Positions 1 to 23,961 of a DNA stretch of 64,000 bases are shown piece by piece; position 1 is the stretch's first letter; every line of letters starts with the position of its first letter. Made by a program: the position numbers and the translations under genes. The DNA comes from a virus (Duplodnaviria; Caudoviricetes). The stretch lies in IMG/VR virus record IMGVR_UViG_3300031953_000001; one strand, 5' to 3'. The notes under the pieces were generated by a model. The model was given only the letters and a program-made list of their open reading frames with translations. It was not told the origin of the DNA and did not search any database.

Positions 1-770
1 GTATCGCGCCGGTGGATCAGTTTGATGATCTGTGCGGGGATGTCCCATTCCCACCAGCGTTCTTGGGTGGTCCACCGCGAAGGATGGGCGTGGTGGTTGT
101 TGTGCCAGCCCTCACCCATGGTGACCAAGTTGGCGATCCAGCTGTTGCGACTGGTGTCACCCTTAAGGTCGTGGTTACGATAACCGTGCAGGTGAGGGAT
201 AACGATGATGCCGCAGGCGCTGTGCAACGACAAGATTGCGGGTACGGCGTAGACAAAGACCACGCCTTGCCACCCCAGCGTTATGTACAGCAGCAAACAC
301 CAAAGGATCAGGATCTCAAAGTAGTTGGCGTGCATCCATCGGTGCAACGGGTCTTTACGAAGCCCTTTGGAGACTCGACCCGCTTGGGTAAACCCCGAGG
401 TGTTCCAGACCCCGAACCAAGCTCTGAATACCCCGATGTTTTGTGGGCTGTGTGGGTCGTGCTCTTGATCGGTGTGTATATGGTGGATGCGGTGTACGAT
501 GGTCCAAGCCAAAGGGCTACCCACCGTGGTTAAAACCCCACAAAACAGTAAGAACGCTTCTATGGGCTTGTACGTCTTAAACGCACCATGAGCCGCCATG
601 CGATGAAAGCCGACGTTGATGCCCAAGATGCCAATGAACCAGTAGGTTAACCACGACACCATAAGCCAGCCCCACCAGCCTTGTACGACCGCCCAGATCA
701 CCAAGGGTAAGGCGATGATGTGGGTGGCGATTTGCAGTAAGCGTACGCCTTGGTTGTGTGTAAGTTTCAT
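1..770 (-). CDS. membrane acyl-CoA/acyl-lipid (delta-9-like) fatty acid desaturase, 3' end beyond window edge
   Basis: Not in the ORF track because it has no stop inside the window. Hand translation from ATG 770 gives MKLTHNQGVRLLQIATHII...FHRMAAH...VHRIHH...GEGWHNNHHAHP...WWEWD, with all three His boxes and hydrophobic segments. Confidence 0.93.
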   Translation of the reverse strand, partial: MKLTHNQGVRLLQIATHIIALPLVIWAVVQGWWGWLMVSWLTYWFIGILGINVGFHRMAAHGAFKTYKPIEAFLLFCGVLTTVGSPLAWTIVHRIHHIHTDQEHDPHSPQNIGVFRAWFGVWNTSGFTQAGRVSKGLRKDPLHRWMHANYFEILILWCLLLYITLGWQGVVFVYAVPAILSLHSACGIIVIPHLHGYRNHDLKGDTSRNSWIANLVTMGEGWHNNHHAHPSRWTTQERWWEWDIPAQIIKLIHRRD

Positions 771-773
771 GCC

Positions 774-1532
774 TTATCCTCGTTTTTTAATGAGCCAAAT
801 GAACATCGCTGGGGGATCGATCTCCCACCAACGGACTTGAAAGTTGTATCGCCCAGGGTGCGCGTGGTGGTTGTTGTGCCAGCCGTCGCCCATGGTCAAA
901 AAATGACACAGCCAACTGTTCTTGCTGTTGTCCTTGATGTCGAAGTTACGGTATCCCCACTGATGCGCTAAGATGGCCAAGGCGTAACTGACAAAGAAGG
1001 TTGACAAAGCCGCGGGGATCAGATAGACCGCGATCACAATCTCAACCCCCCAAACCAACCACAGCGCCGCAACGATTGCCAGGTGCAGATGAAAATAATA
1101 GCGGTGTATCCACATGAACGATGGGGTATCGAGGATGTCTCGCATCGCCACTCGCCGGTCCTCGGTTTCAACGTAGTGCAAACACCATAAGGATTTCCAA
1201 TACCCCATGTGCCTATGACAATGGGGGTCTTTGGGTGTTTCGGTGTATCGGTGATGTACCCGATGTATCCACGCCCAACTGTGGGGAGTGCCTACCGTAC
1301 AAGGCACACTCAGAAGACCCAAGGCCCACTCTATCGGCCCGTACGTCTTAAAGGATCGATGCGATACGTACCGATGTAAATACGCGTTGAACCCGATGCC
1401 CTGAATGACGCCGTAAGCCAGCACACTGACCCACAACAACCCAGGGTCGGTCATCGCCAGATACACCACCCCAGGAATAAAACAAGCAAACAACATTAAC
1501 CGCCACCAGTTTAACCGTTGGGTGGTAAACAT
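774..1532 (-). CDS. membrane fatty acid desaturase (delta-9-like), tandem paralog
   Basis: His boxes LHRYVSH, IHRVHH, WHNNHH. Start moved to ATG 1532, which has an AGGAG SD; the ORF track starts at 1565. Confidence 0.93.
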   Translation of the reverse strand: MFTTQRLNWWRLMLFACFIPGVVYLAMTDPGLLWVSVLAYGVIQGIGFNAYLHRYVSHRSFKTYGPIEWALGLLSVPCTVGTPHSWAWIHRVHHRYTETPKDPHCHRHMGYWKSLWCLHYVETEDRRVAMRDILDTPSFMWIHRYYFHLHLAIVAALWLVWGVEIVIAVYLIPAALSTFFVSYALAILAHQWGYRNFDIKDNSKNSWLCHFLTMGDGWHNNHHAHPGRYNFQVRWWEIDPPAMFIWLIKKRG

Positions 1533-1542
1533 AACACGTCTC

Positions 1543-2748
1543 CTAATGATGTTTCTGCAAAGCAAGGACTGAGTTTAGACCCCCAAACCCAAACGCAGTC
1601 TTAACCACCACGTTTATATCCACGTTGTCTTGACGTTGAGCCAATTGAATGGGGGCCAAGTCGGGATCGAGTGTACTCACTGGGTTGCCCACCAAAAACC
1701 GATGGTTCATCATCAGCACACTGTACCATATCTCAAGACTGCCTGAGGCGGTAACGCTGTGGCCGGTTAACCGTTTAAACGCAGTGACCGGAACGCTATC
1801 GCCATAGACGTCGTAAATCGCTTGAGCTTCGGCCACGTCGCCGTTGGGGGTTGACGTTGCATGGGCTGAGATGACGTCGGGGTATATCCCCTGAAGGTCC
1901 AGTTGCGCTTGCACTGAGGCCATGCAGCGCCGGGCTCCTTCCCCGGTGGGGTTGGTCAAGTCGCCGCCGTCGGAGTAATCCGCGTAAGCCACGCAGCGGG
2001 CGTAAGCGAACGTTCCTTGACGAGCAACCCAATGTTCATAAGACTCTACGATCAAACAGCCACCGCCTTCAGAAATGGTAAACCCCGCTCGATCTTTAGA
2101 GAAGGGTGCCGACGCATGAGTGGGATTATTGCCTCGGTACAACGCCCGCATGGCGTCAAAGCCGGCCAAGGTCTCCCCCAGAATCTTCTCAGCGCTCACA
2201 CAGACCACCACATCGGCTTTGCCCAACTCGATCAAGTCCATGGCCTGGGTAACCGTACGGACCCCAGAGGCGCAGGCGTGTTGAACCGTGTGCACAGGTC
2301 CTCGAATATTGAACAAGGCCGTTAGAGGTCCTGTGACAGCCGTGGGGATAGACTTAAGCAGCGCAAACGGGGAGGTGCGCTTTTCTCGATACCCCAACAG
2401 CGAATGCAATCCGTCGATTCCTGTGGCCCCCATCGCTGAGACCAACGCGGTGCGCTCACTGGCGAAGACCTCAAGACCCAACCCGGCGTCCGCCAAGGCC
2501 CGTAGAATAGACACGTAGCTGATGGCCAGAGTGTCGTTGTACACGCTCTTAGGTAAGTCGCGGGCAGGACTGTCCTCTTTAAGGTTGAACACGCAAGGGC
2601 TCCAAAAACTGGCTTTGAGGTTCTTGCTGAGTATCGCCATGGGACTGATGTTGGACGTCTCTGCTTTGAGGTTATCCACCAGTTCTTGCTGTGTCTGCCC
2701 CATGGGGGTGATTCCACCGGCGCCGGTGATGAGGGTATGAACGGACAT
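1543..2748 (-). CDS. fabF: beta-ketoacyl-ACP synthase (FabF/FabB family)
   Basis: Cys-His-His triad motifs QHACASG, SAHATST, KRLTGHS; PFSKDRAGF and C-terminal AFGFGGLN; 401 aa. Confidence 0.93.
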   Translation of the reverse strand: MSVHTLITGAGGITPMGQTQQELVDNLKAETSNISPMAILSKNLKASFWSPCVFNLKEDSPARDLPKSVYNDTLAISYVSILRALADAGLGLEVFASERTALVSAMGATGIDGLHSLLGYREKRTSPFALLKSIPTAVTGPLTALFNIRGPVHTVQHACASGVRTVTQAMDLIELGKADVVVCVSAEKILGETLAGFDAMRALYRGNNPTHASAPFSKDRAGFTISEGGGCLIVESYEHWVARQGTFAYARCVAYADYSDGGDLTNPTGEGARRCMASVQAQLDLQGIYPDVISAHATSTPNGDVAEAQAIYDVYGDSVPVTAFKRLTGHSVTASGSLEIWYSVLMMNHRFLVGNPVSTLDPDLAPIQLAQRQDNVDINVVVKTAFGFGGLNSVLALQKHH

Positions 2749-2756
2749 GGCGTGGT

Positions 2757-3311
2757 TTACTCTTTTAGATAGACATCAATGGGGATGGCCAATCGTAACC
2801 CTTTGGCGTGTTCTTGCACGTAATGCTGCAAGTACGATGGGAAGATCAGCAACCCCCCCGTTTGGGGTTGGTGTTTGTACGGTTGAAAGTGGTTGTTGAT
2901 CACATCCCAAGGGTAACCGCGCGAAGCCAGACCGCGTGGGTCGCACACGGTTAAGTACCCCTCGCACGCTTCTAGATAATAAATGGCTGACACATGCGCC
3001 CCGGTGTGGTGGTGCAAGGGCGTACCGTGACCATCACTGCTGTTGCGCACCCACGCCTGCCAACTGTCGATCAGAGGCTCGTACGCAAACTGTTCGCACG
3101 CGTATTGCATGATCAACGGGATCAGCTGATCTTCCACAAACGCTTTGAGTCGTGGGTACTCTGGTAGATGGAGGTTTTTGGTCTCATCGATGGGGCGATC
3201 GTCGTAGGATCGACCAGGCATCAAGGCTTCTTCCACCAAGGCGTCCAGATTGGGGGCTGGAACCGTTTCTTCACGCAGTACAATCTTCCACGGTTGAATG
3301 TCGGTGGCCAT
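2757..3311 (-). CDS. putative 2OG-Fe(II) oxygenase (TIGR02466/PF13759-like)
   Basis: HHHTGAHVSAIYYL, DPRG, LLIFPSYLQHYV, distal R-x-A-I motif. Confidence 0.8.
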   Translation of the reverse strand: MATDIQPWKIVLREETVPAPNLDALVEEALMPGRSYDDRPIDETKNLHLPEYPRLKAFVEDQLIPLIMQYACEQFAYEPLIDSWQAWVRNSSDGHGTPLHHHTGAHVSAIYYLEACEGYLTVCDPRGLASRGYPWDVINNHFQPYKHQPQTGGLLIFPSYLQHYVQEHAKGLRLAIPIDVYLKE

Positions 3312-3321
3312 AGTTGAGTCC

Positions 3322-3885
3322 TTACTGGGGTTCTTTTAAATACAGATCGGTGGGCAGAGATACCCGCAACCCCTGACCGTGACCGTCAACGTAATGCTGC
3401 AAGTACGATGGGAAGATCAGCAAGAGTCCCGCTTGGGGGTTCTCACTGAACAGGTTAAAATGGCGGTTCCTCACGTCAGTAGGATAACCGCGACACGCCG
3501 ATCCCCTAGGGTCAACTAAGTTGATGCTGCCCTCACTGGCGCAGGGGTAATAGATGGATGACAAGAGTGCCCCACTGTGCTCGTGCAGCTTCATGCCTTC
3601 GCCCCCTACTGTCACGCGCAACCAGGCGGTGTAACTGTCCACAAACTGCCGTACCCCGAACTGCTGAGTCAGGTAGTCTTGCAAACGAGGCACTATCTCA
3701 TCGTACACCAAGCGATGGGCTTGAGGGAAATCGCGTTCTGACACCGTGTTGTCATCCAACTCCAACCCATCGAAGTTGCGATTGGTGGACCGCATCAAGG
3801 CTTCTGTGATCAACGCCTCGTTGTCCACTCCTTCAAGAATCTCCCGTCGTACCACACAGCGCCAGGGTTCTAGGTCTTGAAACAT
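3322..3885 (-). CDS. putative 2OG-Fe(II) oxygenase, tandem paralog
   Basis: LHEHSGALLSSIYYP, DPRG, LLIFPSYLQHYV. Start moved to ATG 3885 (GGAGG SD). Confidence 0.8.
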   Translation of the reverse strand: MFQDLEPWRCVVRREILEGVDNEALITEALMRSTNRNFDGLELDDNTVSERDFPQAHRLVYDEIVPRLQDYLTQQFGVRQFVDSYTAWLRVTVGGEGMKLHEHSGALLSSIYYPCASEGSINLVDPRGSACRGYPTDVRNRHFNLFSENPQAGLLLIFPSYLQHYVDGHGQGLRVSLPTDLYLKEPQ

Positions 3886-4292
3886 GCAGCCTCCGCTAGA
3901 CACTCGTCTTTAAAGTAACGCACCGTAAAATCCACCCAGAGCCCGGTTAAAGGAATGTGGTCTATCCCCCCCAGCCCTTCAAGGATTTTGTCGTAGTCCG
4001 TTTTGTTCTCACTGTAAGGCACAAAGTACGGGTCGTTGCCAAACAACAAGTCAGGGTCATCCAATACCTCGTAGAAGTCTTCGTCAAAGTGATCGCGCAA
4101 CAGTCTGGCATAGATAACCGCAATGGCGTACGATTTCCCTGGATAAACAGACGCGGCTATAGGAGCACGAAAGTACCGTAAAGCCTCACCCACAACGTCA
4201 GGATCGGAGATGGTGGTGAAGTTGCGGGTATCGTCGCTGTGCTCTTCCGTCAGTCGGTGGTACAGAAGTTGATTGACTTTCCATTCTTTCAT
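3870..4292 (-). CDS. hypothetical protein in radical SAM cluster (YPGKSY motif)
   Basis: ATG 4292 overlaps the upstream stop (ATGA); acidic DDPDLLFGNDPYF segment. Confidence 0.7.
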   Translation of the reverse strand: MKEWKVNQLLYHRLTEEHSDDTRNFTTISDPDVVGEALRYFRAPIAASVYPGKSYAIAVIYARLLRDHFDEDFYEVLDDPDLLFGNDPYFVPYSENKTDYDKILEGLGGIDHIPLTGLWVDFTVRYFKDECLAEAACFKT

Positions 4293-5377
4293 GCGATTCG
4301 CCTTTCCCAGTTGAATTCGTCTCGCATCGCTTGGGCGGTGGAGATGCAACGGTCAGCATTGGTGATGGCCATGACTTTCTGTACCCCTCGCTCGGCACAC
4401 TTAGCCACAAACTCACAGCCGCCGCAGATGCCGTTGGATTGGGCTAAACTCAAACACTCGAACATCCCCGCCTCTTCTTGCGCAAAGATGCTCTCAAAGG
4501 TCCAGGGACCGTCAACGCGATGCTCGGGTTCAAAGGACGAGAAGGCCTCCACAATGAACGGCGGCACGAACAACTCGCCGTTGCGATAGACCACGTCCCA
4601 GTCCTCGCCCTCACTCAATTGCAACTCGACGATGTCGAAATGTTCCCCACGCTCGGTTGCAGCCAAACGCGCGTCGATCAGCAGTCGGTTTAGATGGTGA
4701 AGACTGGTCAAGAACCGAGTCTGGTTCTCGGGGTCTCTCAAACTGTCTCGACCGTGGGGAAGAATGAAGTCGTTGTGTGACGTTGGGTGCAGTTCGGTGT
4801 GGTACATCCGGGTCAACAGGTCTTTGGTCAAGGTGAATTTACGCTTGACGTCGTTGGCGATCGATTCTTCAAAATTGATCACGGTGTAGACTCGGGTGAT
4901 GGTCACGGTCTTAAGGCAACTCTCAAAGTAAGCCACCTTCTGACGAATGCCATCCACGTACGCTGGGTTGTCCAAATGCCGCACTTCAAACGGCACCGTG
5001 AACTTCAACAGCCCGTTAGGGATCAGCGCTTCGACTTGTTCGGCTAAGCGCTCGTAGATCCGCGGGTTGGGGTCTATGAACGCACAGTTTAAGGTGGTCT
5101 TTAAGAACCGTTTGGCTATAGCTTTGATGCGGGGGTGTTCCAAGATCGCGTCTTTGTTCTCAGAGCTCAAAATGTCGGTGGGGCCTAGGATGAAATTGAG
5201 CATCTCCAACTCGGCCGTTTCAAACGACGTCAACATCCGGTCGATGCGATCGAACTCCTCCTCGGTTGGAAGTCGGTTGTTGTCTTTCTCCACCATACAC
5301 CCAGAACAGTGGTGACGGCACCCAGAGGCGATCTCCATGGTGAAGTCGATCAATTTGTTAACTTGAGATACGTGCAT
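4289..5377 (-). CDS. divergent radical SAM protein with C-terminal Cx2Cx5C
   Basis: CRHHCSGC (CxxxCxxC); GPTD where GGEP is usual; C-terminal CGGCEFVAKC. Confidence 0.75.
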   Translation of the reverse strand: MHVSQVNKLIDFTMEIASGCRHHCSGCMVEKDNNRLPTEEEFDRIDRMLTSFETAELEMLNFILGPTDILSSENKDAILEHPRIKAIAKRFLKTTLNCAFIDPNPRIYERLAEQVEALIPNGLLKFTVPFEVRHLDNPAYVDGIRQKVAYFESCLKTVTITRVYTVINFEESIANDVKRKFTLTKDLLTRMYHTELHPTSHNDFILPHGRDSLRDPENQTRFLTSLHHLNRLLIDARLAATERGEHFDIVELQLSEGEDWDVVYRNGELFVPPFIVEAFSSFEPEHRVDGPWTFESIFAQEEAGMFECLSLAQSNGICGGCEFVAKCAERGVQKVMAITNADRCISTAQAMRDEFNWERRIA

Positions 5378-5381
5378 GTTC

Positions 5382-6437
5382 TCACCAATCGCATTTGTGG
5401 GGAAGATGTCCCAAAATAGAAAGACACTGGTCGGTCTCTAACAGCCGTTGCAGTCGATGCACCCCACGCGTCGCGCATTTGCTAACAAAGTGACACCCAG
5501 AACATGAGGTGAGGGTGGTGGCGTGTTCAACCGATTTAAAGTAGGTCTGTTGATCCGACCGTTGAATGGAATCCAGCGTCCACGGTTTATCGAATTTAAA
5601 GTCGGGGTGGAACACGGCGATGGGGCTGTTGATCAACGGAGCAATGTACAACTCACCGTCGCGGTACGATAAATGGTAATCTGAGCCGACGTGCGAATCC
5701 AAGTCGTCAATTTTAAACTCATACCCTTTATCGAGTTGATTGGCAAACACCGCGTTTTGCTTGAGAATGGTTCTGACGAATTCTTCCCGATTGCTCTTAA
5801 CGGTTAAGTCACGACGCCCATTGTGCAAGACGAAGGTGGTGGTGTCCGATCGTTTAAACAGCTGGATGTGGCGGGTTTCGTACAACACCTCTTCGGTGAT
5901 CAAGCCACTGTCAAGCATTGTCTCGGTCAGGTTCACTATAGTGGTCACACTGGCCAGACGAATGCTGGTTAAGTGCTGCTCAAACCAGGCAATACGCCCC
6001 CGCAGTTTCTCGATGTAGCCCAGGTTTCGATGGTGCTTCAATTCGAAAGGCACTAAGAACTCAACATCAAGGCCCGGCATGAACGCTTCCAGCTCTTTAG
6101 CAAACTGGACGTAGGCATCGGGATTGGGGTTCAAAAATGAGCAGTTGAACACCACCGATTTAAACCCCTTAACCATGTCTTTGATGGCTGGGTGGGTGAA
6201 TACGTCACGTCGGTTGCTGGCCGCCATGACATCCGTCGGGGCAAACTCCATCCACGACATCTCCCAGCCTCGTTGACGTACCTCTTCCACCACCTGAGTT
6301 AAGGCGTAAAGATCGTCTTCCGTGTACGGTGTAACGTCTTGGGTGTTGACACTGCAACCCGAACAGCTGTAGTCGCAGTCTTTCAACAACTCCAACGCAA
6401 GATTGCCAATGTTGTCTTCTCGGATCAGGAGGGTCAT
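5382..6437 (-). CDS. divergent radical SAM protein, paralog of 4289-5377
   Basis: CDYSCSGC; APTD; C-terminal CSGCHFVSKC. Start moved to ATG 6437 (ATGA overlap). Confidence 0.75.
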   Translation of the reverse strand: MTLLIREDNIGNLALELLKDCDYSCSGCSVNTQDVTPYTEDDLYALTQVVEEVRQRGWEMSWMEFAPTDVMAASNRRDVFTHPAIKDMVKGFKSVVFNCSFLNPNPDAYVQFAKELEAFMPGLDVEFLVPFELKHHRNLGYIEKLRGRIAWFEQHLTSIRLASVTTIVNLTETMLDSGLITEEVLYETRHIQLFKRSDTTTFVLHNGRRDLTVKSNREEFVRTILKQNAVFANQLDKGYEFKIDDLDSHVGSDYHLSYRDGELYIAPLINSPIAVFHPDFKFDKPWTLDSIQRSDQQTYFKSVEHATTLTSCSGCHFVSKCATRGVHRLQRLLETDQCLSILGHLPHKCDW

Positions 6438-7393
6438 TGTTGCTCTGCCCATTGGATCAGGTGAATAAACCCGTTGCACGAGTACTCCGTGCTTTGGACG
6501 TCTCTTAAATGTTCCGACAGACAACGCCCTAAGTAGCGACACCCACTGCACCCAGAGTTTTGTACGCGCTCTTTCTCGGTCACGCACCATGCGAAATACT
6601 CATCGATGGAGTCTAACTCTAAGAAGAACTCGTTGTCTTGGGCGTCAAACTCCAACACCCCAAATTTCCCAGTGGGTGTCACATAGACGTGGTCGTCTGA
6701 AAAAGCGTTGCCCCGTCCGGCGATCACTTCATCCAACTGCTGTGCATTGACAAAGTCGAACTTCATCTCGTCACGGCGGGCGTGCAGTACTTTGATGAAC
6801 GCCTCGTACTCCGGATAACTGACCGGCAGTTGGTTGGCTTGATTGGGGCTGTAAGGCTTGATCTCCACCGAACTGAGGTTGGCCAGCAAGTTCAAGGTGC
6901 CAATGATCTCATCCGGGTTCTTTGCCAAAAGCGCGGGTGAGGCCAACATCAAGATGCAGAACTCCCGTTCCATCTTCAGCATTTGCTGAAAGACAAGGTC
7001 GCTTTTCTCTCGGGCGTCGAAATCGTAGCTGACCGACAGGTACCAATCGGGATCGTGCACCACCGGGTTGTTCATCGACAGGTTGGTGATGATGTTCAGA
7101 TCGTCAATGCCGCGAAGATGCAGTCCGGCTTTGAGTTCCGTCAAGTACTCCACAGGCAGCAGCAGAGGCTCGCCGCCGTACAGATCCACCATCCCGACCT
7201 CAGCCACGGCTAAGACCTCATCCACCCGCTCAAAGAGCCGTGAGAGCTTAAGACGTTGCTTGTCTCCAAGTTGCTCATCCGTCAAGTAACAAAACGAGCA
7301 ACGAAAGTTGCAATAGTAGCTAGGATTCAGGCTGAGGTTCAGAGTCGGCTTAACCGACGGCGATGATGTTGCTGGGTACATCGATGGCCTCAT
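6434..7393 (-). CDS. radical SAM protein with SPASM/twitch-like tail (start uncertain)
   Basis: CNFRCSFC, LYGGEP, C-terminal CSGCRYLGRCLSEH...C. Confidence 0.88.
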   Translation of the reverse strand: MRPSMYPATSSPSVKPTLNLSLNPSYYCNFRCSFCYLTDEQLGDKQRLKLSRLFERVDEVLAVAEVGMVDLYGGEPLLLPVEYLTELKAGLHLRGIDDLNIITNLSMNNPVVHDPDWYLSVSYDFDAREKSDLVFQQMLKMEREFCILMLASPALLAKNPDEIIGTLNLLANLSSVEIKPYSPNQANQLPVSYPEYEAFIKVLHARRDEMKFDFVNAQQLDEVIAGRGNAFSDDHVYVTPTGKFGVLEFDAQDNEFFLELDSIDEYFAWCVTEKERVQNSGCSGCRYLGRCLSEHLRDVQSTEYSCNGFIHLIQWAEQQ

Positions 7394-8450
7394 TGACGTA
7401 GTCGGTAGGGATCAGTTGTCCGGTTAACCCATTGGCGTCGATGATCTGAGGGGCCAGAGCTTTCATCTTCACGCAGTGTTCTTCCACCCGCCCGGTTTTC
7501 TTTGCGTCGCGGATGCTTTTCTTGCACCCGTTGCAGATTGAAAACATAGGACAGAAGTAACAACTCTGTTTCAGGCTGGCCAACTCAACCACCTGCAAGG
7601 GCCGTTGTTTTGCCCCCGCCATCTCAACTTCAAAGTCAATGGGGTATTCTCCATCGTCACCAAAGGAGCCGCAGGAGTAATAACCGCCGTTGGGTTGCAT
7701 GTTGCGAATGCCCGAGTCACAATCCCGAGCCAAAGGACAGGTGGTTGCTCCCCCGGCTAAGACGGTCATCATCTGTTGAGTGCTGTGTTCCCACTGAGCC
7801 AGCCCTGCGGCGTAGATCTCAAGGTACACCTCGTACATGTCGGCCACCACAAAGTGCTGACCTTCGTTGCCCATGGTGCCTTTTCGAGTCTGGATCACCG
7901 GTCCTGAGGCGTTGGCGTAGTTCAGTTTGCACACCACGCCCATGGCCTTGGCCAACTCCACCGTTTTTACCGCTGTGTCGCGGTTGCTTTCGTCGATGAC
8001 CGCAATGAACCCAGGACGATAACCCACGTGTTCCAGCATGGCGTCTGAGACGCCCCAGAACTCCTCTTCGGTGAAAGGGGTATAATCACCCTTTAAACGT
8101 TTGTCACCGTACTGGAAACTGGTGTGGACCCCAATGCGAGGATGATTGAACAGCTCAGACCACATCGAGGGTTTCTTGTAGAAAGGCCAGAGGTTAGTGG
8201 TCAAAGATAAGACCGTCTCCTCCATCTCCAACTCGTCCAAGACCGCAATTATGTCCCAGTAATACTGCACTGGCATCATCAGAGGATCACCGCCGTTGAC
8301 GATGATGGTCTGGGTTTCTGGGTAACGCACTAAGAACCGCCGGATGTCCGCCACAGACACTATGTCGTCTTTGTCGTCAGCGATGTTGGTGCTGGAGCAA
8401 AAGGTGCATTTAAAATTGCATTTCTCAGTCGGTTTTATGATCAAGTCGAT
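7350..8450 (-). CDS. radical SAM/SPASM protein (start ATC 8450 or TTG 8444)
   Basis: CNFKCTFC, NGGDP, CPLARDC...YYSC, CYFCPMFSICNGC...C. Confidence 0.9.
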   Translation of the reverse strand: MDLIIKPTEKCNFKCTFCSSTNIADDKDDIVSVADIRRFLVRYPETQTIIVNGGDPLMMPVQYYWDIIAVLDELEMEETVLSLTTNLWPFYKKPSMWSELFNHPRIGVHTSFQYGDKRLKGDYTPFTEEEFWGVSDAMLEHVGYRPGFIAVIDESNRDTAVKTVELAKAMGVVCKLNYANASGPVIQTRKGTMGNEGQHFVVADMYEVYLEIYAAGLAQWEHSTQQMMTVLAGGATTCPLARDCDSGIRNMQPNGGYYSCGSFGDDGEYPIDFEVEMAGAKQRPLQVVELASLKQSCYFCPMFSICNGCKKSIRDAKKTGRVEEHCVKMKALAPQIIDANGLTGQLIPTDYVNEAIDVPSNIIAVG

Positions 8451-8481
8451 GTTACTACCCTCCTACTCAGACCTACTCCAA

Positions 8482-9540
8482 TCATACCGCTACAATTGGA
8501 ATCAGACCCAAGGCAGTGTTGTGCAAGACGTCGATGTATCGGTGGGTGGCTTTATACACACACTCGTCCATCTCGTCGCGAAAGCGGTAATTGTGTTGCA
8601 TGAAACAGCCCAACTCACACCGATGAAAATACTCACAGGTGGTGCAGCCGTACTTCTCCATGAACGCTTCTTCTATACCGCTGTTGTCTTTGGCTTCAAT
8701 GGGGGTGGTGTAAATATCTTTGGCCACCTCCGGGTCGATCAGATTCCCGCAGCCGCAAATCGTGCCATCTTCCAACACCAACTTACTGGACCGACACGAC
8801 AGACTCGACGACTGACGTTTCAACCAACCGGCGATCGGCTCACACCGAGGGTAGCGATCGATCAGAAACTTGAACATACGAAACAGGTCGGTGTCGCTGG
8901 GGGCGGCGTCGGTGCGCTCATCCGGCATCAGGTAATCAAAGTACATCTTGAACCCGGCCTGATACGCCCACTGAAAGAACTCGTCGGTGTCTTTTACAAA
9001 GTGGTCGATGTTTTGTTTGGTCATCAACAAACTGATGCTGGTCACTGTCTCAGGGCCGTAGTATTCCAGGTTGGCACGGAACTGTTTGAACTGCTTCCGA
9101 TTGAACCGTCCTTTAGGATCGTAAGAGACGGTCACGGTGGTCTTGACGTCCACCGTTTGTACTCGCTCCAAAAAAGACGTCAGCTGAGTGGTGTCCGGAG
9201 TCACCAGGTTGGTGACCCAGTTCAAGGTTACCTCTAGGTTCAGCTCGCGACACATCTCAGCGATCGCTTGACTGAAGTAGAGGTACGTGTCCGCCAGAAG
9301 TGGGGTAAAGATCTCAGGAGCAAAGACCTCACCGCCCATGATGTTAAACACCACCTGCGATTTGGTCTCTTGTTCCAACAGCGACCGAACAATAGGGAGC
9401 TTGTCCAGTACGTCATCTACCCCCACCAGTGAATCGTGATCCTGCCAACAGAAACTGCACGACAGATTGCAATAGGTAAACAGGTGCAACGTGTACTCCT
9501 GTTCCTTATCGCGTTTGTTCTGTAAAAAGAGGTCGGTCAT
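8482..9540 (-). CDS. radical SAM/SPASM protein
   Basis: CNLSCSFC, MGGE, CTTCEYFHRCELGC (Cx2Cx5Cx3C). Confidence 0.9.
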   Translation of the reverse strand: MTDLFLQNKRDKEQEYTLHLFTYCNLSCSFCWQDHDSLVGVDDVLDKLPIVRSLLEQETKSQVVFNIMGGEVFAPEIFTPLLADTYLYFSQAIAEMCRELNLEVTLNWVTNLVTPDTTQLTSFLERVQTVDVKTTVTVSYDPKGRFNRKQFKQFRANLEYYGPETVTSISLLMTKQNIDHFVKDTDEFFQWAYQAGFKMYFDYLMPDERTDAAPSDTDLFRMFKFLIDRYPRCEPIAGWLKRQSSSLSCRSSKLVLEDGTICGCGNLIDPEVAKDIYTTPIEAKDNSGIEEAFMEKYGCTTCEYFHRCELGCFMQHNYRFRDEMDECVYKATHRYIDVLHNTALGLIPIVAV

Positions 9541-10550
9541 AGTTCAAAGCCTTTGCACGCCTCCGGACTCAGACTCACGGCCCAATGGATTAAGTGCACG
9601 TTGAGTTTGTCCAGATCCGCCCAGTCCAGGTAATCGGTGTGCTCGTTGCTGGCACGGAGCATGTCGATGAACAGATCGGTGACTTGGTTGTTGCCCATGG
9701 GTACGCTGGTGTTAACGATCTTCAACTTAGCCCGCTCGGCGCTGACTTGAGTTTTCTCAATCGCCTCCGACTGCTCCAGATACAACGCGTAGTCACTCAC
9801 CACCGCCTCGATGGCCGCTGGCTTAAGTCGAGTAATGCCGGCTCTCAACTTAGGGTTGTTGATCATGGTGAGCCTAGGAATCTTCGACAACAAATCAACT
9901 TCTCCTAAGTGGTCTTTTGCCGTGTACCCGTATTTCTCTTGCATGTAATCTGAGAAGAACAGAAGCGTCAGATTGCGTTGAGTCTCATCGAGGGTGTTGA
10001 GTACGCCGCGCAGGGCAAACACTCGGATCGACTCGGCGATGCTGGCGCGTTTGTTCCCAGATAGATGATCCAGTAACTTATACTCCAACGACACCCGCTG
10101 AGTCAGGTCTTGGGTCAATGTTCTTAACTTGTCTTCCCTTGGGGTACGACTCAAGTTCTCGATCCACGTCTTTAAAGTCGTCGGGTCAGGCAAGCCGACG
10201 CCTTGAGCGTGCAGGGTCAGCATCTCCAAGTTAAGGAGTGTCTTTATCTGATCGTCCTGAGCGTTAGGGAAGATGGCTTTCAACCACATAGCCACCAAGG
10301 CCCCATACGTCTCCAAACTGACATAGATCACCAGCTTAGCATCGCCGGCTTCTACAAACTTGGCCAGCAGCTCGACAAACCCCTCGTCGATAAAGGCCGC
10401 CTCATCCTGAGTCTTACCCACCATCACAGGACCCACGCCCAAACGTTCGTCGTAGTTCTCAGCCAGCTGAGCCGACGCCAGATAGAAGGTGTGCTTATCC
10501 GACTTGAGTGAATCTACTTCGAGGTAAACCCGACTGAATAAATGATACAT
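9537..10550 (-). CDS. hypothetical protein in radical SAM cluster
   Basis: 337-aa ORF coupled on both sides (TAATG and ATGA overlaps). Confidence 0.75.
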   Translation of the reverse strand: MYHLFSRVYLEVDSLKSDKHTFYLASAQLAENYDERLGVGPVMVGKTQDEAAFIDEGFVELLAKFVEAGDAKLVIYVSLETYGALVAMWLKAIFPNAQDDQIKTLLNLEMLTLHAQGVGLPDPTTLKTWIENLSRTPREDKLRTLTQDLTQRVSLEYKLLDHLSGNKRASIAESIRVFALRGVLNTLDETQRNLTLLFFSDYMQEKYGYTAKDHLGEVDLLSKIPRLTMINNPKLRAGITRLKPAAIEAVVSDYALYLEQSEAIEKTQVSAERAKLKIVNTSVPMGNNQVTDLFIDMLRASNEHTDYLDWADLDKLNVHLIHWAVSLSPEACKGFEL

Positions 10551-11275
10551 TACGCGTCCTCGATGGCTTCGTGGTTGTGCTTTAAGGTAGACATCAGTCC
10601 GTCAAACTCGGTGTCTGTGACCACCTCGGCGTCGCTGAAGGTCAACGACATCAGGTACACGTCGTTCTCCGGGATTGCCCAGAAGTGAAACAGGTTCTTA
10701 CTTTTGAACATGTAGTCGTTGAAATACTTGGTGTAGTTCTTCACCAACCCCTCGTTAACTGCCCCTAAGGCAATTGGAAACAACGGGTTATCAAACAAAT
10801 GAACAAAGTTAATGCCTTTGGTATCCGACGTGTCGTCTGTGGGATAAACGTCCACCACGCTTTGGAGCTTCTCGTCCTGAAACGTGGTCATCACGTACAG
10901 ACTCATCGAGTCAATCAACGACAGCCACTTGCCCAAGATCTCAAGGTGCTCTTTGATCCACTGATCGGTGACCCAGCTGCACTCGGCAAGTCCTTTGATG
11001 TGCAAGACGACTTCCAACACCAAGGTTTCCAGTTGAGGGCACTTTAACAAGGTCGGCAGATTGAGGTACGCGTCCACCACCTCCAGGACGTCTTCACCCA
11101 AGAACGTAACGTCCACCGGCAACTCCAAGTTGCTCAGATAGATCAACGCTTGTAAGGGCGCTACTTTATCTTTGGAGGCACTCAGGTCCACGTCCAGGAT
11201 CACGTCAGGGTCGCCGATCACGGCTCTGAGGGTGGTTACGGGTATGGGTACGTTGGTTTTAATGACGGTACTCAT
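10550..11275 (-). CDS. hypothetical protein in radical SAM cluster
   Basis: Start moved to ATG 11275 (TGATG overlap with the upstream stop). Confidence 0.75.
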   Translation of the reverse strand: MSTVIKTNVPIPVTTLRAVIGDPDVILDVDLSASKDKVAPLQALIYLSNLELPVDVTFLGEDVLEVVDAYLNLPTLLKCPQLETLVLEVVLHIKGLAECSWVTDQWIKEHLEILGKWLSLIDSMSLYVMTTFQDEKLQSVVDVYPTDDTSDTKGINFVHLFDNPLFPIALGAVNEGLVKNYTKYFNDYMFKSKNLFHFWAIPENDVYLMSLTFSDAEVVTDTEFDGLMSTLKHNHEAIEDA

Positions 11276-11829
11276 CAACGGCGTCCTCGGGAGTTGTGGC
11301 AGTTGCTGTGACATTGCGTATGACACACTTGTCGTGAGAAAGTTCTAAGCGTATTAACTCGGGCGCTCTGAGCGTAGAGGTTGCGCACCCGTTCAATGTA
11401 GTCGTATGTTTGAGACTGATCCACCGGCAATCCGTTGACCAACCCACCGGCGGCAGGACTCGCCAGAGGCACGTAATCGCCCGCCGGTAAATGCGCAATG
11501 GCGATCGCGTTGTAGATCACCGTGGCGGTGTTGTTGGAGTACCCGGACTTACTGCGGGTGATGTAGATTTGGGTACGACGAATCCGTGAGTACACGTTAA
11601 CGTAACTCATAAAGACATCACGTAAGGTTTTGGCGGTTAACTCGTCTGAGGGCACTTGCAGTTGCGCCAACGAGGGCACGCCTAGATCGCCTGAGGTGGT
11701 GCCACCGAACCAACTCACCAGCGAGTTAGCTGGATAGATGTTGGTACCCCAAGAGATACCCGATCGGGTGTATCCAACCACCCGTCCTACGAACTGATTG
11801 TACACGTCTAATGATTTAACGTCAGCCAT
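11275..11829 (-). CDS. protein with C-terminal (CHxx)3-RGRR motif; candidate modification substrate
   Basis: Ends VCHTQCHSNCHNSRGRR; the only three Cys in the protein are in this tail. Confidence 0.8.
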   Translation of the reverse strand: MADVKSLDVYNQFVGRVVGYTRSGISWGTNIYPANSLVSWFGGTTSGDLGVPSLAQLQVPSDELTAKTLRDVFMSYVNVYSRIRRTQIYITRSKSGYSNNTATVIYNAIAIAHLPAGDYVPLASPAAGGLVNGLPVDQSQTYDYIERVRNLYAQSARVNTLRTFSRQVCHTQCHSNCHNSRGRR

Positions 11830-11873
11830 GATCGCTTCCTATTGATTAAATTCCCATACGATCTGACGACCGC

Positions 11874-12923
11874 TTATCCGACGTTGAGTGCCGGAATTAG
11901 TTCAGGCGCGCCGTATTTAAAGTGCGAGAGCAACAACATCAACCCCGGACACGAATCGCCCTGCCACACCAAGCGGTGACAATCGCCTCCACACACGTCC
12001 AACAGATGGCAACTCACGCAGTTGGGGTTGAGGTCCAACTCGGTGGTGATGCGCTCCATCCGTCCTTCACTGACCAGAAACTCATCAATGGGGTCGTTCA
12101 AGGTACCGTTGGATTCTGCCTTAGCCCCGTTGGCACAACCGCCGATGTTGCCAGCTCCATCAATAGTGAACAGATTCTGTTCACAGTCACGACAGTTGGT
12201 GTCTACTTTGAACTGATTGGTTTCAAACTTGGTTTCAATGGCGTCCAAGGTGTTGATGTGGTAGTTGGGCTTTAGTCGCTTGTACGCAAAGTACAGGTCG
12301 TAGTAAAACCGATCCACCGCTCGATTGTCTGGAAACATGTGGGGGTTGTCCACCGCGTTGCCATCGGACGTCAAGCGCTCCACCGCAATCTCCGTTACCC
12401 CAAATTCTCCCCACAAGTGAATCAACTCGTCGATGTCGTACGTCAGTAACTGATCGGTCACCGTGACGAACATCTTGATGGTGATGCCTTGAGCTCGCAG
12501 CATGGTCAAGTTGTTGCGCCACTGCGTGTACATGCGTTCGGTCTTAAACCGATAAACCGGGTCCCAACTGGTGCCCACGTGACTGCTCATCATCGTCTTA
12601 AAGAATTCGACGTGGCGATCGGTTAGCTTGTAGATCAGATTGGTGGTGGCGCCAATGGAGATATCTTCCCAACGTTCGACACTGACCCGCGACCGCACCG
12701 CGTTAGCAAACTGCCAGTGCTCGTCAATCGGGCGTAAGAAAGGCTCACCCCCGTGCAATTCTAGATGTAGATGTTCCTCGGGAAATCGCTGACCTAATTC
12801 ACTGGCCCACTGTGCTACTTTATCGATGTCCCAGACGGTTTTAGCGCCCTTAGACCCGGAGGTGAAACAGTGATCGCAATCGAGGTTGCAGGTGTCCGTG
12901 GGTTTTATGTAAACAACTTTCAT
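11874..12923 (-). CDS. radical SAM/SPASM protein
   Basis: CNLDCDHC, HGGEP, CRDC...GGC, CVSCHLLDVCGGDC...C. Start ATG 12923 (ATGA overlap). Confidence 0.92.
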   Translation of the reverse strand: MKVVYIKPTDTCNLDCDHCFTSGSKGAKTVWDIDKVAQWASELGQRFPEEHLHLELHGGEPFLRPIDEHWQFANAVRSRVSVERWEDISIGATTNLIYKLTDRHVEFFKTMMSSHVGTSWDPVYRFKTERMYTQWRNNLTMLRAQGITIKMFVTVTDQLLTYDIDELIHLWGEFGVTEIAVERLTSDGNAVDNPHMFPDNRAVDRFYYDLYFAYKRLKPNYHINTLDAIETKFETNQFKVDTNCRDCEQNLFTIDGAGNIGGCANGAKAESNGTLNDPIDEFLVSEGRMERITTELDLNPNCVSCHLLDVCGGDCHRLVWQGDSCPGLMLLLSHFKYGAPELIPALNVG

Positions 12924-13402
12924 AACTTCCACCGGTCTTCAATAAAACGTTCATTGCCAAAACTGATCATGATCGACTCCTCGTGATTCAACGCGCGGTG
13001 AGGCACACCGGCGAGAACCCAGACACCGGGGTTGTCTGCGTTTAACGTTACCAGCTCCCCTGCAATCTCAAGGGTCTTAGTGCCCCAGATCCACTTTAAG
13101 TAAATGTCATAGGGGTCTTGATGAAGAGGGAAACTGGGAGCCCCGGCACAGGCCCAAAACAAATGAGCGTTGCAAGGTCCCTCGTGTCCGCTTTCTTCTT
13201 TGATACGACACGTTTCTAAGTAGACCTCTTTAAAGACTTTCTCCAACTCTTCTACCTTTACAGTTTTTAAACTGTCGTCAAACACCTCGGCTGCCGATTG
13301 AGCTGGGCGTATCTGTTGGTCAGCATCAATGCGCGAGACCATACCTTCTTCGTACAAATCGGGTAGGGTGAGCAGCAGCTCAAGTCGGTCTTTAAAGTCC
13401 AT
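12920..13402 (-). CDS. JmjC/cupin-like Fe(II)/2OG hydroxylase
   Basis: SFPLHQDPYD (HxD), GTK, distal PHRA His. Start ATG 13402 with GAGGAG SD. Confidence 0.75.
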   Translation of the reverse strand: MDFKDRLELLLTLPDLYEEGMVSRIDADQQIRPAQSAAEVFDDSLKTVKVEELEKVFKEVYLETCRIKEESGHEGPCNAHLFWACAGAPSFPLHQDPYDIYLKWIWGTKTLEIAGELVTLNADNPGVWVLAGVPHRALNHEESIMISFGNERFIEDRWKL

Positions 13403-13463: not shown

Positions 13464-13489
13464 AAAAAAGAGAGGACCGAAGTCCTCTC
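13464..13489 (-). terminator. intrinsic terminator between tail genes and the enzyme cluster
   Basis: GAGAGGAC-TTCG-GTCCTCTC followed by T6 on the minus strand. Confidence 0.85.
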
Positions 13490-13503
13490 GTGTGGGGTGT
13501 GCG

Positions 13504-14961
13504 TTACTGCCACTGAGGCGGCCAAACCTGACGCCAAGTACCGGCCACATACGCTTGCAACGTGCCCGCGGATTCACGCAGCGACAAAGACTCATTGACG
13601 TTCTTCTGAACGTATCTCGCTAGAGTGCCTGTGAGGGTCTCTGTTACATAACTACTGACCAACGCAGGGGTCATGTACCGGTCAGACGCCGTACCCGTAA
13701 GCGCTTCCAGAGAACTGGCTACAGGGAAATTGCTAACCGACCCCAAACCCACTTGCGCCTTAGTGACTTGGTGGGGGTTGCTGGTGTTGCTCACGTGAGC
13801 AGTCAACGGCAGTCCAGCCTGGAACGCAATGGCTTCTTTTACGCGCTGCGGTGTCATGTACCGATCGTTGCGAGTACCTTCCTGAGCATCCAACAAAGAC
13901 CCCAGAGGGTGATTCGCCACCGAACCCAAGCCCACTTGGGTCTTGGTCACCAGATGCGGGTTGTCTTTATTGGCGTCGTGTGCCGCCACCGCGTCTCCAG
14001 CCAACTGATCAATCGCCGCCACCAAACTCGGAGGCGTGATGTACCGATCGGAACGTACCCCTTCAATTGCCTCAGCCGGGGTGGCGTCCAAGTTGTTACT
14101 GAGGTTTCCTAAGCCCACTTGAGCTTTGGTCACCAAATGCGGGTTGTCTGACCGAGCTGTGTGTGCACTCAGATCCACCCCAACCTGACTGGCGATGGCT
14201 TGACGTACCCGATTGGGCGTCATGAACCGAGAGTTGTTCAGACCCTCTTCCGCTTCGAGTTGGGTGGCGTCTCGGTAGTTGGACACCTGAGACAAACCCA
14301 CTTGAGTTTGAGTGACCTGATGTGGGTTGTCGGTGCGGTCGGAGTGAGACTCCAATTGGGTGCGCACTTCTTCAGCCCGGGTCAACGCTAACTGGTATCG
14401 GTCTTCGATCTGTATCCGTATCTCATCGTGCGAGGCCACATCGCCGTACAGAATCGCTTGACGGATCTGATCCAGCTGCTGCACCACGTACTCAAAACCG
14501 TAAATGTCGCCTAAGTCGTGCAGGTGAGGTGAGGGTGGAAACGCGTCTGGCCGTCCCAGCAAATCGCCCCATATGACTTCACGGTCATCGAGGTTCAGGT
14601 TATCAATCAGATCGATAATGACCTGAGTGATGTTGGCGTAGTCGCCTCCCACCACCTGATAGTCAAGAGTGACCTCATCGGATACCGATCCGTCGGTGAC
14701 GATCACCGCCGTGCAAATTTCCTTACCCGAGCGCTCGCTGGGTTCGGCGTAGTACATGATCGGAATGTACTGATCGTTCGGAACCAGCAACGCACCACTG
14801 ATGCCGTCGCGGACCACCAAGGACTCGGTGTAAAAGGCACCGTATCTGGGTACCGCCGCGCGGTTGAGGCCTGGGTGCAACGTGTGCGGTTCCCCAAGAA
14901 GCAAGTTCTCAGGCGAGGTACCCGTTAAGTCTAATGGGTACTTGTTGACGATATCATTCAT
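13504..14961 (-). CDS. virion structural/tail-fibre-type protein with four NPHxVT-QVGL repeats
   Basis: Four ~61-aa repeats NPHxVTKxQVGLGxVxN...xMTP; N-terminus paralogous to 18718-21399. Confidence 0.75.
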   Translation of the reverse strand: MNDIVNKYPLDLTGTSPENLLLGEPHTLHPGLNRAAVPRYGAFYTESLVVRDGISGALLVPNDQYIPIMYYAEPSERSGKEICTAVIVTDGSVSDEVTLDYQVVGGDYANITQVIIDLIDNLNLDDREVIWGDLLGRPDAFPPSPHLHDLGDIYGFEYVVQQLDQIRQAILYGDVASHDEIRIQIEDRYQLALTRAEEVRTQLESHSDRTDNPHQVTQTQVGLSQVSNYRDATQLEAEEGLNNSRFMTPNRVRQAIASQVGVDLSAHTARSDNPHLVTKAQVGLGNLSNNLDATPAEAIEGVRSDRYITPPSLVAAIDQLAGDAVAAHDANKDNPHLVTKTQVGLGSVANHPLGSLLDAQEGTRNDRYMTPQRVKEAIAFQAGLPLTAHVSNTSNPHQVTKAQVGLGSVSNFPVASSLEALTGTASDRYMTPALVSSYVTETLTGTLARYVQKNVNESLSLRESAGTLQAYVAGTWRQVWPPQWQ

Positions 14962-22806: not shown

Positions 22807-23961
22807 TTAAGTGAAATTTGGGGCGTTGGTGGACAGCAGTGAACTGTAATCTGCAAAGCTAGCGTATGAGGTAACGTTACTCACATCCCAGCCTTTGATG
22901 TACTGATTGAACGCGGAGGCGAAGTTGAACATTTGCCTCATGTTCGTTACGCTACCGACGTTCCAGTTGTTCAGGGGTTGGTTGAAGACACTGGCTCGGT
23001 TGAACATGCCCTCCATGTTAATAACCTGACTGACGTTCCAACCGCCGATGGCGCCATTAAACGCACCCGCTTGTCTAAACGTATCCGTCATAGTTAATAC
23101 GCTACTCACGTCCCAACCACTGATGTCTTGGTTAAAGACGTTAGTTGACTTGAACATGTACGCTATACTCACCACACCACTGACATCCCAAGCGGCCAAC
23201 GGCTGGTTGAACGCATAAGCAAGTAAGAACATCGACGTCATGTCCACTACGTTGCTCGTGTCCCAGTGATTGATGTTGCTGTTAAAGTTAGTGGCGCTGT
23301 AGAACATCTGAGCGCAGCTTGCGCCTGGTAAAAAGGTCGGGCCATCGCTGGCGCTGATCACAAACCCAGTTCGCCGAGCAAACATCGCCTGAGCCGAAGC
23401 GAACTCCACCTCACCCCATTGCATCACGTCTTTGAGTTGCTGTTGCGATTCGACTAATGGGTTAGTGAAACCATTGATCGTACCGTGAACTTCTACGGTG
23501 TATTGGCCGGGTGTCGAGTAGTCGTGTGAGGCAGCTCCAGTGAACGCCTGAATTTCTGACCCATCGCCCCAGTCGATGGTGACGTCACTGCCTGTGGCAA
23601 AGGACAGAATCACGTTGGTCGCACCGCCGGCCGTACCCTCGGTGTCCACCAGTAATTTCATACCGTCACCGAACAGACGTCCGGTGCGGAGGATGGTGGC
23701 GATGTCGTCGCGAACCAACGCGTTCATGGCCGCAGGGCGGCTGAACAGTTGGTCGTCATTGGTAACCGTAGGGTCGTCTTGTTTGACCTGAGAAATCAGC
23801 TTAGCGTACTCATCTCCTGTGGCTATGGCCAACGCTTTAGCGTCATCGAGTGCCTGTTGTGTGATGGTGCTGGTGCTGAAATCCAACACGGCTTGCTTGT
23901 AATCGTCGATTGCGGTATTGAGTTCGGCTCGTTTTACATCCAGGTCGTTCAGGGTCGCCAT
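22807..23961 (-). CDS. DUF285/BspA-type repeat protein (6 repeats) with PKD-like domain, copy 1
   Basis: 25-aa repeats FNxxIxxWdVSxVxxMxxMF; IDWGDG...HDYSTPGQYTV. Confidence 0.85.
   Translation of the reverse strand: MATLNDLDVKRAELNTAIDDYKQAVLDFSTSTITQQALDDAKALAIATGDEYAKLISQVKQDDPTVTNDDQLFSRPAAMNALVRDDIATILRTGRLFGDGMKLLVDTEGTAGGATNVILSFATGSDVTIDWGDGSEIQAFTGAASHDYSTPGQYTVEVHGTINGFTNPLVESQQQLKDVMQWGEVEFASAQAMFARRTGFVISASDGPTFLPGASCAQMFYSATNFNSNINHWDTSNVVDMTSMFLLAYAFNQPLAAWDVSGVVSIAYMFKSTNVFNQDISGWDVSSVLTMTDTFRQAGAFNGAIGGWNVSQVINMEGMFNRASVFNQPLNNWNVGSVTNMRQMFNFASAFNQYIKGWDVSNVTSYASFADYSSLLSTNAPNFT

Follow-up and report, generated by a model that had tools for sequence, protein, structure and literature searches.

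A stretch of 64,000 nucleotides from the IMG/VR virus record IMGVR_UViG_3300031953_000001 (Duplodnaviria; Caudoviricetes), referred to here as the window, begins with a block of minus-strand genes that is best explained as two separable modules that adjoin each other within a single translationally coupled operon, a reading to which we give a probability of about 0.55. Module A probably modifies one virus-particle protein chemically, and module B probably makes host membrane fats more unsaturated. In module A, four core radical S-adenosylmethionine (SAM) enzymes, with two lineage-specific paralogues, would act on the (Cys-His-x-Ser)x3-Arg-x-Arg-Arg tail of what we term the CH-tail protein, as would a cupin and the oxygenases of family PF13759; the likely changes would be thioether or cyclophane-type cross-links and hydroxylations, and the finished protein would be incorporated into the particle close to the fibres. 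In module B, a FabB-like ketosynthase would draw on host acyl-acyl carrier protein (ACP) and malonyl-ACP, and five distinct membrane desaturases would introduce double bonds into host acyl chains during infection. The features of module A, from right to left in the window, are as follows.

2757-13402, minus strand: module A as a whole, in the order cupin, radical SAM (rSAM), CH-tail protein, two unknowns, rSAMs, unknown, 2-oxoglutarate (2OG) oxygenase
12920..13402, minus strand: small cupin of 160 residues, first gene of module A, with an invariant H-x-D...H and Lys
11874..12923, minus strand: rSAM6, a radical SAM/SPASM gene adjoining the CH-tail gene (Pfam 32.6 bits; TIGR04085 28.9 bits, cut-off 27; 76 of 80 loci)
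11275..11829, minus strand: CH-tail protein of 184 residues, the proposed substrate (family alignments; homologue gp170 in the virion proteome of phage Atu_ph07)
11278..11325, minus strand: codons for residues 169-184, the tail (C-H-x-x)x3-R-G-R-R at the C terminus, which alignments A1, A4, and A8 show as invariant
10550..11275, minus strand: unk258 (PHROG 20767), conserved, with a confident model of no known fold
9537..10550, minus strand: unk337, found by its own hidden Markov model (HMM) in 71 of 80 loci
8482..9540, minus strand: rSAM5, radical SAM with a SPASM-like Cys pattern (motifs, Pfam/NCBIfam, own HMM)
7350..8444, minus strand: rSAM4, radical SAM, more conserved than any other cassette gene (52-62% identity between unrelated phages)
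6434..7393, minus strand: rSAM3, radical SAM (Pfam and motifs)
5382..6437, minus strand: rSAM2, radical SAM-like, lineage-specific paralogue (motifs present, no Pfam match)
4289..5377, minus strand: rSAM1, radical SAM, lineage-specific paralogue (Pfam below cut-off, with motifs)
3870..4292, minus strand: unk159 (PHROG 20737), with many invariant polar residues
3322..3885, minus strand: 2OG-Fe(II) oxygenase, PF13759 (Pfam)
2757..3311, minus strand: 2OG-Fe(II) oxygenase, PF13759 (Pfam), last gene of module A

The open reading frame (ORF) of the proposed substrate closes with the Cys/His tail CHTQCHSNCHNSRGRR. Homologues are 22-33% identical overall, yet they have in common the C-terminal end C-H-x-x-C-H-x-x-C-H-x-x-R-x-R-R. 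A profile search of 1.84 billion representatives returned 537 family members at E <= 0.001; the exact tail end closes 132 of the 150 best family representatives (consensus V-C-H-[SA]-S-C-H-S-[SN]-C-H-x-S-R-[GS]-R-R) and 83 of 87 ORFs of viral loci, the four exceptions being the front halves of split genes. The N-terminal 165 residues have conserved motifs of their own.

A homologue is a component of purified particles. In the virion proteome of Agrobacterium phage Atu_ph07, gp170 (31.9 kDa) is represented by eight peptides at 35% coverage, and the neighbouring radical SAM, cupin, and unknown proteins do not appear in the list (PMC6102473, Table S5); the CH-tail protein is therefore taken to be structural and the enzymes not. 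The same protein peaks in gel band 1, at the top of the gel, which otherwise holds proteins of 75-139 kDa (PMC6102473, Table S5). Such migration, far above its own size, is as for a cross-linked form or one resistant to sodium dodecyl sulfate (SDS).

Conservation of the cassette was followed in 80 IMG/VR loci obtained from a scan with the CH-tail protein profile, using HMMs built from the orthologues. The order cupin-rSAM6-CH-tail-unk258-unk337-rSAM5-rSAM4-rSAM3-unk159-2OG oxygenase is kept in nearly all of them. The CH-tail gene is present in all 80, rSAM6 in 76, the cupin in 75, rSAM5 and unk258 in 74 each, unk337 in 71, rSAM4 in 65, rSAM3 in 64, unk159 in 61, and the 2OG oxygenase in 57, with absences falling mostly at contig ends; rSAM1 and rSAM2 are extra paralogues, found in 27 loci. 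The initial annotation had expected all of these genes, fatty-acid enzymes included, to recur together in other genomes, which holds for the module A genes and only seldom for the fatty-acid enzymes, found with the cassette in 2 of the 80 loci. Three loci (L094, L096, and L098) carry a variant cassette, with two tandem CH-tail paralogues, each having the full tail, followed by three to five genes of the rSAM1/2 type; the cupin and rSAM6 were not found within the stretch covered.

The gene upstream of the cassette is fibre-like throughout: in 23 loci it is a homologue of the window's 485-residue fibre, and otherwise it encodes a protein of 365-1821 residues with a common C-terminal domain of 150 residues, which gives a match to the terminal part of a PHROG tail-fibre family. 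A comparison with hhalign found no link between these two kinds of upstream fibre gene. The domain of about 150 residues, seen at L018:6917-8449, at L003:19634-21457, and in some 45 IMG/VR loci, has conserved motifs that include YADLAEKY and ALKGRVPVKV, and is also carried by Atu_ph07 gp176, itself a virion protein. It may be a docking partner of the CH-tail protein.

As the initial annotation stated, radical SAM arrays do occur in other jumbo phages. A tblastn search with rSAM4 detected genes of 52-62% identity in Ralstonia phages RSF1 and RSL2, Burkholderia phages FLC6, FLC8, and S13, Pseudomonas phage pPa_SNUABM_DT01, Agrobacterium phage Atu_ph07, and Sinorhizobium phage Phosso. RSF1, pPa_SNUABM_DT01, Atu_ph07, and Phosso share the order cupin, rSAM, small protein, two unknowns, and then rSAMs with oxygenases, and in annotated loci the cultured-phage cassettes are placed behind large virion or fibre genes. 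These carriers thus have the window's genes in the same order; they differ in lacking the ketosynthase and desaturases and in having mostly four radical SAM genes rather than six. In published phages the cupin, radical SAM, and 2OG oxygenase genes have been described as accessory genes whose role is not known (PMC8066314, PMC11898562), and the Atu_ph07 and S13 papers are silent on the function of the cassette.

In all, rSAM4 gave 1,286 matches; in metagenomes its clusters at about 60% identity number over 1,200 and are distributed across unrelated jumbo-phage lineages. One homologue of 61% identity (P0339) is filed as Streptomyces sp. CHB9.2, on a contig of 241,743 bp, perhaps that of a jumbo phage or a prophage within an actinomycete assembly. 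In RSF1 (L004, 12330-13619) an HNH endonuclease gene and two dihydrofolate reductase (DHFR) genes are inserted between two radical SAM genes of the cassette. A role in DNA modification, an idea raised by these DHFR genes, was rejected because they lie behind the HNH endonuclease and are absent elsewhere.

Each of the six radical SAM ORFs contains an N-terminal CX3CX2C, the motif that holds the SAM-binding 4Fe-4S cluster, and a C-terminal CX2CX5C, as first noticed by the initial annotation. Against PF04055 (cut-off 29.5 bits), rSAM3, rSAM4, and rSAM6 score above the cut-off (34.9, 36.6, and 32.6 bits) and rSAM1 and rSAM5 below it (19.2 and 18.7 bits); rSAM2 has no match but is 29% identical to rSAM1. 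By motif and profile, all six genes are assigned to the radical SAM superfamily. A SPASM domain (TIGR04085/PF13186) would show a seven-Cys C-terminal pattern with CX2CX5CX3C, corresponding to two auxiliary clusters, and a score of at least 27 bits. rSAM6 (28.9 bits) alone exceeds the cut-off; rSAM4 and rSAM5 have the full Cys pattern at 17.2 bits, and the corresponding region of rSAM1-3 has CX2CX5C and one or two additional Cys only. The best family matches of these genes, all weak, are to DynA, AmcB, PapB, anSME, HxsB/HxsC, and a CXXX-repeat family (NCBIfam).

The two oxygenases match PF13759 at 50.8 and 47.4 bits (cut-off 27 bits). What had been read as a JmjC hydroxylase is better described as a small cupin with HxD...H: H94-x-D96...H135 and K109 are invariant, there is no Pfam or NCBIfam match, and the best match of its profile in the Protein Data Bank (PDB) is a generic cupin_2 (E 6e-7), with weak matches to JmjC-type hydroxylases (YxbC and 1vrb, 3e-3; MINA53, 0.01; NO66, 0.4). 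Neither unk258, unk337, and unk159 nor the CH-tail protein could be assigned to a family by searches of Pfam, NCBIfam, PDB profiles, and Atlas, and unk337 has no PHROG match. The model of unk258 (predicted local distance difference test, pLDDT, 84.6) matched nothing in the PDB and one uncharacterised AFDB cluster; that of the CH-tail protein (pLDDT 67.6) had matches in BFVD to its own family alone and none in the PDB. A predicted complex of unk258 with the CH-tail protein scored 0.30 against a mark of 0.32, which speaks neither for nor against binding.

Since the radical SAM, cupin, 2OG oxygenase, and CH-tail genes form a conserved unit and the Atu_ph07 homologue is located in the virion, a heavily modified virion protein is the best reading of module A. 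Of the alternatives, it is doubtful that the tail instead serves a fibre-associated protein for metal binding or oligomerisation only, with the enzymes directed at fibre proteins, a glycan, or a nucleotide. Phage fibres are frequently metal-binding, Cys and His at i, i+4, and i+8 would fall on one face of a helix, and SDS-resistant oligomers would also explain the position of gp170 in the top gel band. Against this, rSAM6 flanks the CH-tail gene in 76 of 80 loci, and the 16-residue end is invariant across a family of more than 500 representatives, which is stricter than usual for metal sites. The DHFR genes inserted in the RSF1 cassette, which might suggest that the enzymes act on something else, carry little weight for the reason given above.

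The nearest known analogue of virion-protein maturation is the HXS antiphage system, in which an entire bacterial protein carrying His-x-Ser repeats is matured by a pair of radical SAM enzymes, the mass change having been mapped to one repeat (Li et al., Nat Commun 2026, PMC13128918). It is an earlier example of an entire HxS-repeat protein being matured by radical SAM enzymes. Like module A, HXS combines at least two radical SAM enzymes, a whole-protein substrate with short repeats, and a setting of phage-host conflict, and its enzymes are weakly similar to those of the window (rSAM6 to HxsB, E 2.8e-10, 39.5 bits, cut-off 370; rSAM4 to HxsC, E 1.4e-5, 24.1 bits, cut-off 268). It differs in being bacterial, in its three-residue repeat without Cys, in its periplasmic substrate, which has a domain for peptidoglycan binding, and in having no cupin, 2OG oxygenase, unk258, unk337, or unk159 partners, whereas the substrate proposed for module A belongs to the virion and ends in (CHxS)x3-RxRR. 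Module A is accordingly not placed in the HXS family: the HxsB and HxsC scores are far under their cut-offs, and the CH-tail protein has neither a signal nor a peptidoglycan-binding domain. [quoted passage not shown]

RiPP loci themselves suggest another, unlikely, alternative, namely that the 184-residue protein is a precursor with a long leader, and that its 16-residue tail, once cross-linked, is cleaved off and released as a free peptide natural product. The RiPP maturases (sactipeptide, ranthipeptide, and triceptide synthases, DynA, PapB, AmcB, and TIGR04115) and the anaerobic sulfatase maturase share CX3CX2C and CX2CX5CX3C with the module A enzymes, and in both cases a SPASM-type maturase gene adjoins a substrate with a Cys-rich repeat, here C-terminal and core-like. 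Module A is unlike RiPP loci, however, in reaching no equivalog cut-off, in lacking an RRE domain, and in that up to six paralogous enzymes would serve one 16-residue motif of a protein-sized substrate that is retained in the particle. Neither a protease nor an exporter is conserved in the cassette across the 80 loci. The presence of the Atu_ph07 homologue as a protein in purified virions, the conserved motifs of the N-terminal part, and the position of the locus among fibre genes argue further against a released peptide.

Module B begins immediately to the left of module A and continues beyond the window.

1-2748 and leftwards, minus strand: module B as a whole, ketosynthase and five desaturases
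1543..2748, minus strand: FabB-like beta-ketoacyl-ACP synthase, opening module B, its Cys159-His296-His330 triad intact
774..1532, minus strand: membrane desaturase of predicted delta-9 type, orthogroup A (PF00487)
1..770, minus strand: membrane desaturase of predicted delta-9 type, orthogroup B, its last 10 codons lying left of the window

Pfam domains and the ORF tail bear out the two 2OG oxygenases, ketosynthase, two desaturases, and Cys/His-tailed protein of the initial annotation, to which the leftward sequence adds three desaturases. The ketosynthase matches the N- and C-terminal ketoacyl-synt domains at 91 and 70 bits and remains under the equivalog cut-offs of FabB (239.5 bits, cut-off 630) and FabF (228 bits, cut-off 494); it is a divergent FabB-like enzyme, by its sequence, and not an orthologue. 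Its clade comprises about 17 metagenomic proteins of 43-75% identity, the next nearest being bacterial FabB (KAS I, active in unsaturated fatty-acid elongation) at 32-37%. The five desaturases score 42-71 bits against PF00487 (cut-off 29.7), and each keeps the boxes HX4H, HX2HH, and HX2HH, a delta-9-type pattern, together with hydrophobic segments; they are predicted to be membrane fatty-acid desaturases of delta-9 type. All five orthogroups, and a cupin-like protein of about 175 residues, are retained in relatives that are 40-60% identical. The latter protein (L001:7083-7607; L021:9476-9988 and 14249-14779) is pirin/HutD-like by Atlas structure (TM 0.5-0.64), is present in two copies in some relatives, and in some close relatives lies between the last oxygenase and the ketosynthase.

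Module B was found in this small clade only. A single-protein scan of IMG/VR with the ketosynthase gave no match, and just two IMG/VR contigs belong to the ketosynthase clade. No relative of the ketosynthase or desaturases was found in cultured jumbo phages, and no comparable ketosynthase-desaturase set among cultured phage records, of which one with a PF00487-type desaturase was found, Pelagibacter phage Mosig (26% identity). Cyanophages carry DesC-like desaturases as auxiliary metabolic genes. Mosig has a single desaturase, whereas the window phage has five paralogous desaturases, the ketosynthase, and the cupin-like protein. Module A lies directly upstream in six of eight distinct ketosynthase contexts (the window, L006/L104, L009, L103, L108, and L109). 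The most divergent ketosynthases, those of L021 and L022, are accompanied by syntenic fibre genes with no cassette at that place, the order being fibre, three small genes, ketosynthase, four desaturases, the 175-residue protein, desaturase, and endolysin. Among the best 120 of the 1,286 rSAM4 matches no contig has the size of L021 or L022, and the cassette may lie elsewhere in those phages.

The initial annotation had proposed a look to the left of the window for an ACP, acyltransferase, or ligase; in the whole 222-kb genome there is no ACP, Fer2/ferredoxin, acyltransferase, acyl-activating (AMP-binding) enzyme, or ligase. Without an ACP, acyltransferase, or acyl-activating enzyme of its own, module B must use host carriers, and the lack of an ACP, acyltransferase, and ligase also makes host-lipid remodelling likelier than protein acylation. 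Nothing points to acyl transfer onto protein. The modified virion protein of the initial annotation stands as the best reading of module A; its acylation is not supported.

It is improbable that module B, instead of serving bulk membrane fluidity, yields one particular polyunsaturated lipid, such as might be needed for the early membrane vesicle that nucleus-forming phages make, or changes the lipids of the envelope so as to block superinfection. Retention of each of the five orthogroups suggests five specificities rather than dosage, and the phage looks phiKZ-like, both of which would fit such a role; the genes nevertheless lie within the late fibre/lysis region, and all five enzymes have the same delta-9-type box pattern. 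It is very improbable that the two modules form one integrated pathway, as the initial annotation proposed, in which the ketosynthase and desaturases make an unsaturated acyl chain for a radical SAM-modified protein and so a lipidated virion or RiPP product: the close spacing of last oxygenase and ketosynthase in a coupled operon and the six contexts in eight speak for it, but in 78 of 80 loci, and in every cultured carrier, the cassette has neither ketosynthase nor desaturase, module B stands without the cassette in L021 and L022, ACP, acyltransferase, and ligase were not found in the genome, and adjacency inside one clade is shared by descent. The link of module A to the fatty-acid enzymes is a juxtaposition in one lineage.

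Several points weigh against the reading of two separable modules, one of them maturing a virion protein. Every NCBIfam maturase match is far under its cut-off, and the models of the CH-tail protein and unk258 resemble no known fold. The proposed connection between the enzymes and the tail, and with it the tail modification, is drawn from gene neighbourhood and analogy, and the tail could simply bind metal. As to separability, module A adjoins the ketosynthase in six of eight contexts, in the window at 8 nt, and may be functionally linked to it in this clade; the L021 and L022 contigs, without an adjoining module A, are covered over 21 kb only.

The operon layout is tight. ORF listing and junction analysis place 16 consecutive minus-strand genes in window positions 1-13402, one more than the 15 of the initial annotation, which was right about their close coupling. 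ATGA overlaps join cupin and rSAM6, unk337 and rSAM5, rSAM3 and rSAM2, and rSAM1 and unk159; TGATG or TAATG overlaps join the CH-tail gene to unk258 and unk258 to unk337; and the remaining junctions, with corrected starts, are gaps of at most 44 nt, including 8 nt between the last oxygenase and the ketosynthase and 10 nt between the ketosynthase and the first desaturase. Starts were placed downstream of that of the longest ORF for the cupin (ATG 13402), rSAM2 (ATG 6437), unk159 (ATG 4292), and a desaturase (ATG 1532). The strong terminator described behind the tail-fibre genes was recovered as a hairpin with a T-run at 13489-13470; from there to the cupin gene runs an AT-rich stretch, followed by TATG. 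The flanking features are these.

13470..13489, minus strand: intrinsic terminator hairpin, 8-bp GC-rich stem and T-run, between the fibre stop (13504) and the cupin
13504..14961, minus strand: tail-fibre-like virion protein of 485 residues, preceding the cassette (PHROG 2163/13857, E 1e-135; homologues precede the cassette in 23 loci)

The same-strand block extends about 12 kb leftwards beyond the window, where a cupin-like protein of 174 residues is also encoded. A third desaturase comes first, followed by small ORFs and a 740-residue fibre that has an S74 chaperone domain; behind the fourth desaturase lie unknowns, then the fifth, and last a DUF285/PKD protein and a muramidase endolysin. 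The last two, a DUF285 (BspA-like) and PKD protein and a PG_binding_1 and muramidase endolysin (L001:9352-10566 and 11653-12465), end the block, and the same pair lies downstream of the desaturases in L021. Every Radical_SAM match of the whole 222-kb genome falls inside this block, so the gene clustering is not due to chance.

A 3.7-kb contig that covers the fibre genes in one metatranscriptome library stops at 13498, beside the terminator hairpin, with adapter sequence beyond. In this RNA library the fibre contig (region 13498-18000) has about 10 times the word depth of the cassette contigs (region 1-13200), and a DNA run is flat. Contigs from the library span the whole block at low depth, possibly as carried-over DNA, and were not used as evidence of expression because contig depth cannot rank genes; they hint weakly at a working terminator and at lower, or differently timed, transcription of the block.

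The source record is a 222,493-bp virus with direct terminal repeats; its positions 46133-110132, read on the reverse strand, make up the window. As phiKZ-like markers the genome has RNase H, an SbcC-like gene, split RNA polymerase beta genes (PHROG 2986 and 3148), and numerous fibre-like genes, and by this gene content it is probably that of an uncultured phiKZ-like jumbo phage from brine; an RNA polymerase subunit is 46% identical to that of the best cultured relative. Near-identical DNA occurs in brine metagenomes of more than 10 studies (2019-2024) and in aquatic metagenomes, and the host is probably a halotolerant bacterium. A megablast search of the block against 50,697 phage records gave no match. 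Elsewhere in the window, four paralogues of 359-509 residues (22807-23961, 38040-39569, 42880-43959, and 44036-45193) are scattered on both strands and have a common C-terminal domain matching PHROGs 17273, 22899, and 3649, to which no function is assigned.

Module A is among the most conserved accessory gene sets of the large phages examined, widespread yet unstudied. Cultured carriers exist for Ralstonia, Burkholderia, Pseudomonas, and Agrobacterium hosts, and the maturation idea is therefore directly testable. If radical SAM enzymes do cross-link a particle protein, this would constitute a new route of virion building and a new class of SPASM substrate. Module B, for its part, would add to the single desaturase genes of viral lipid metabolism a set of seven genes that includes a condensing enzyme, and this in a hypersaline habitat.

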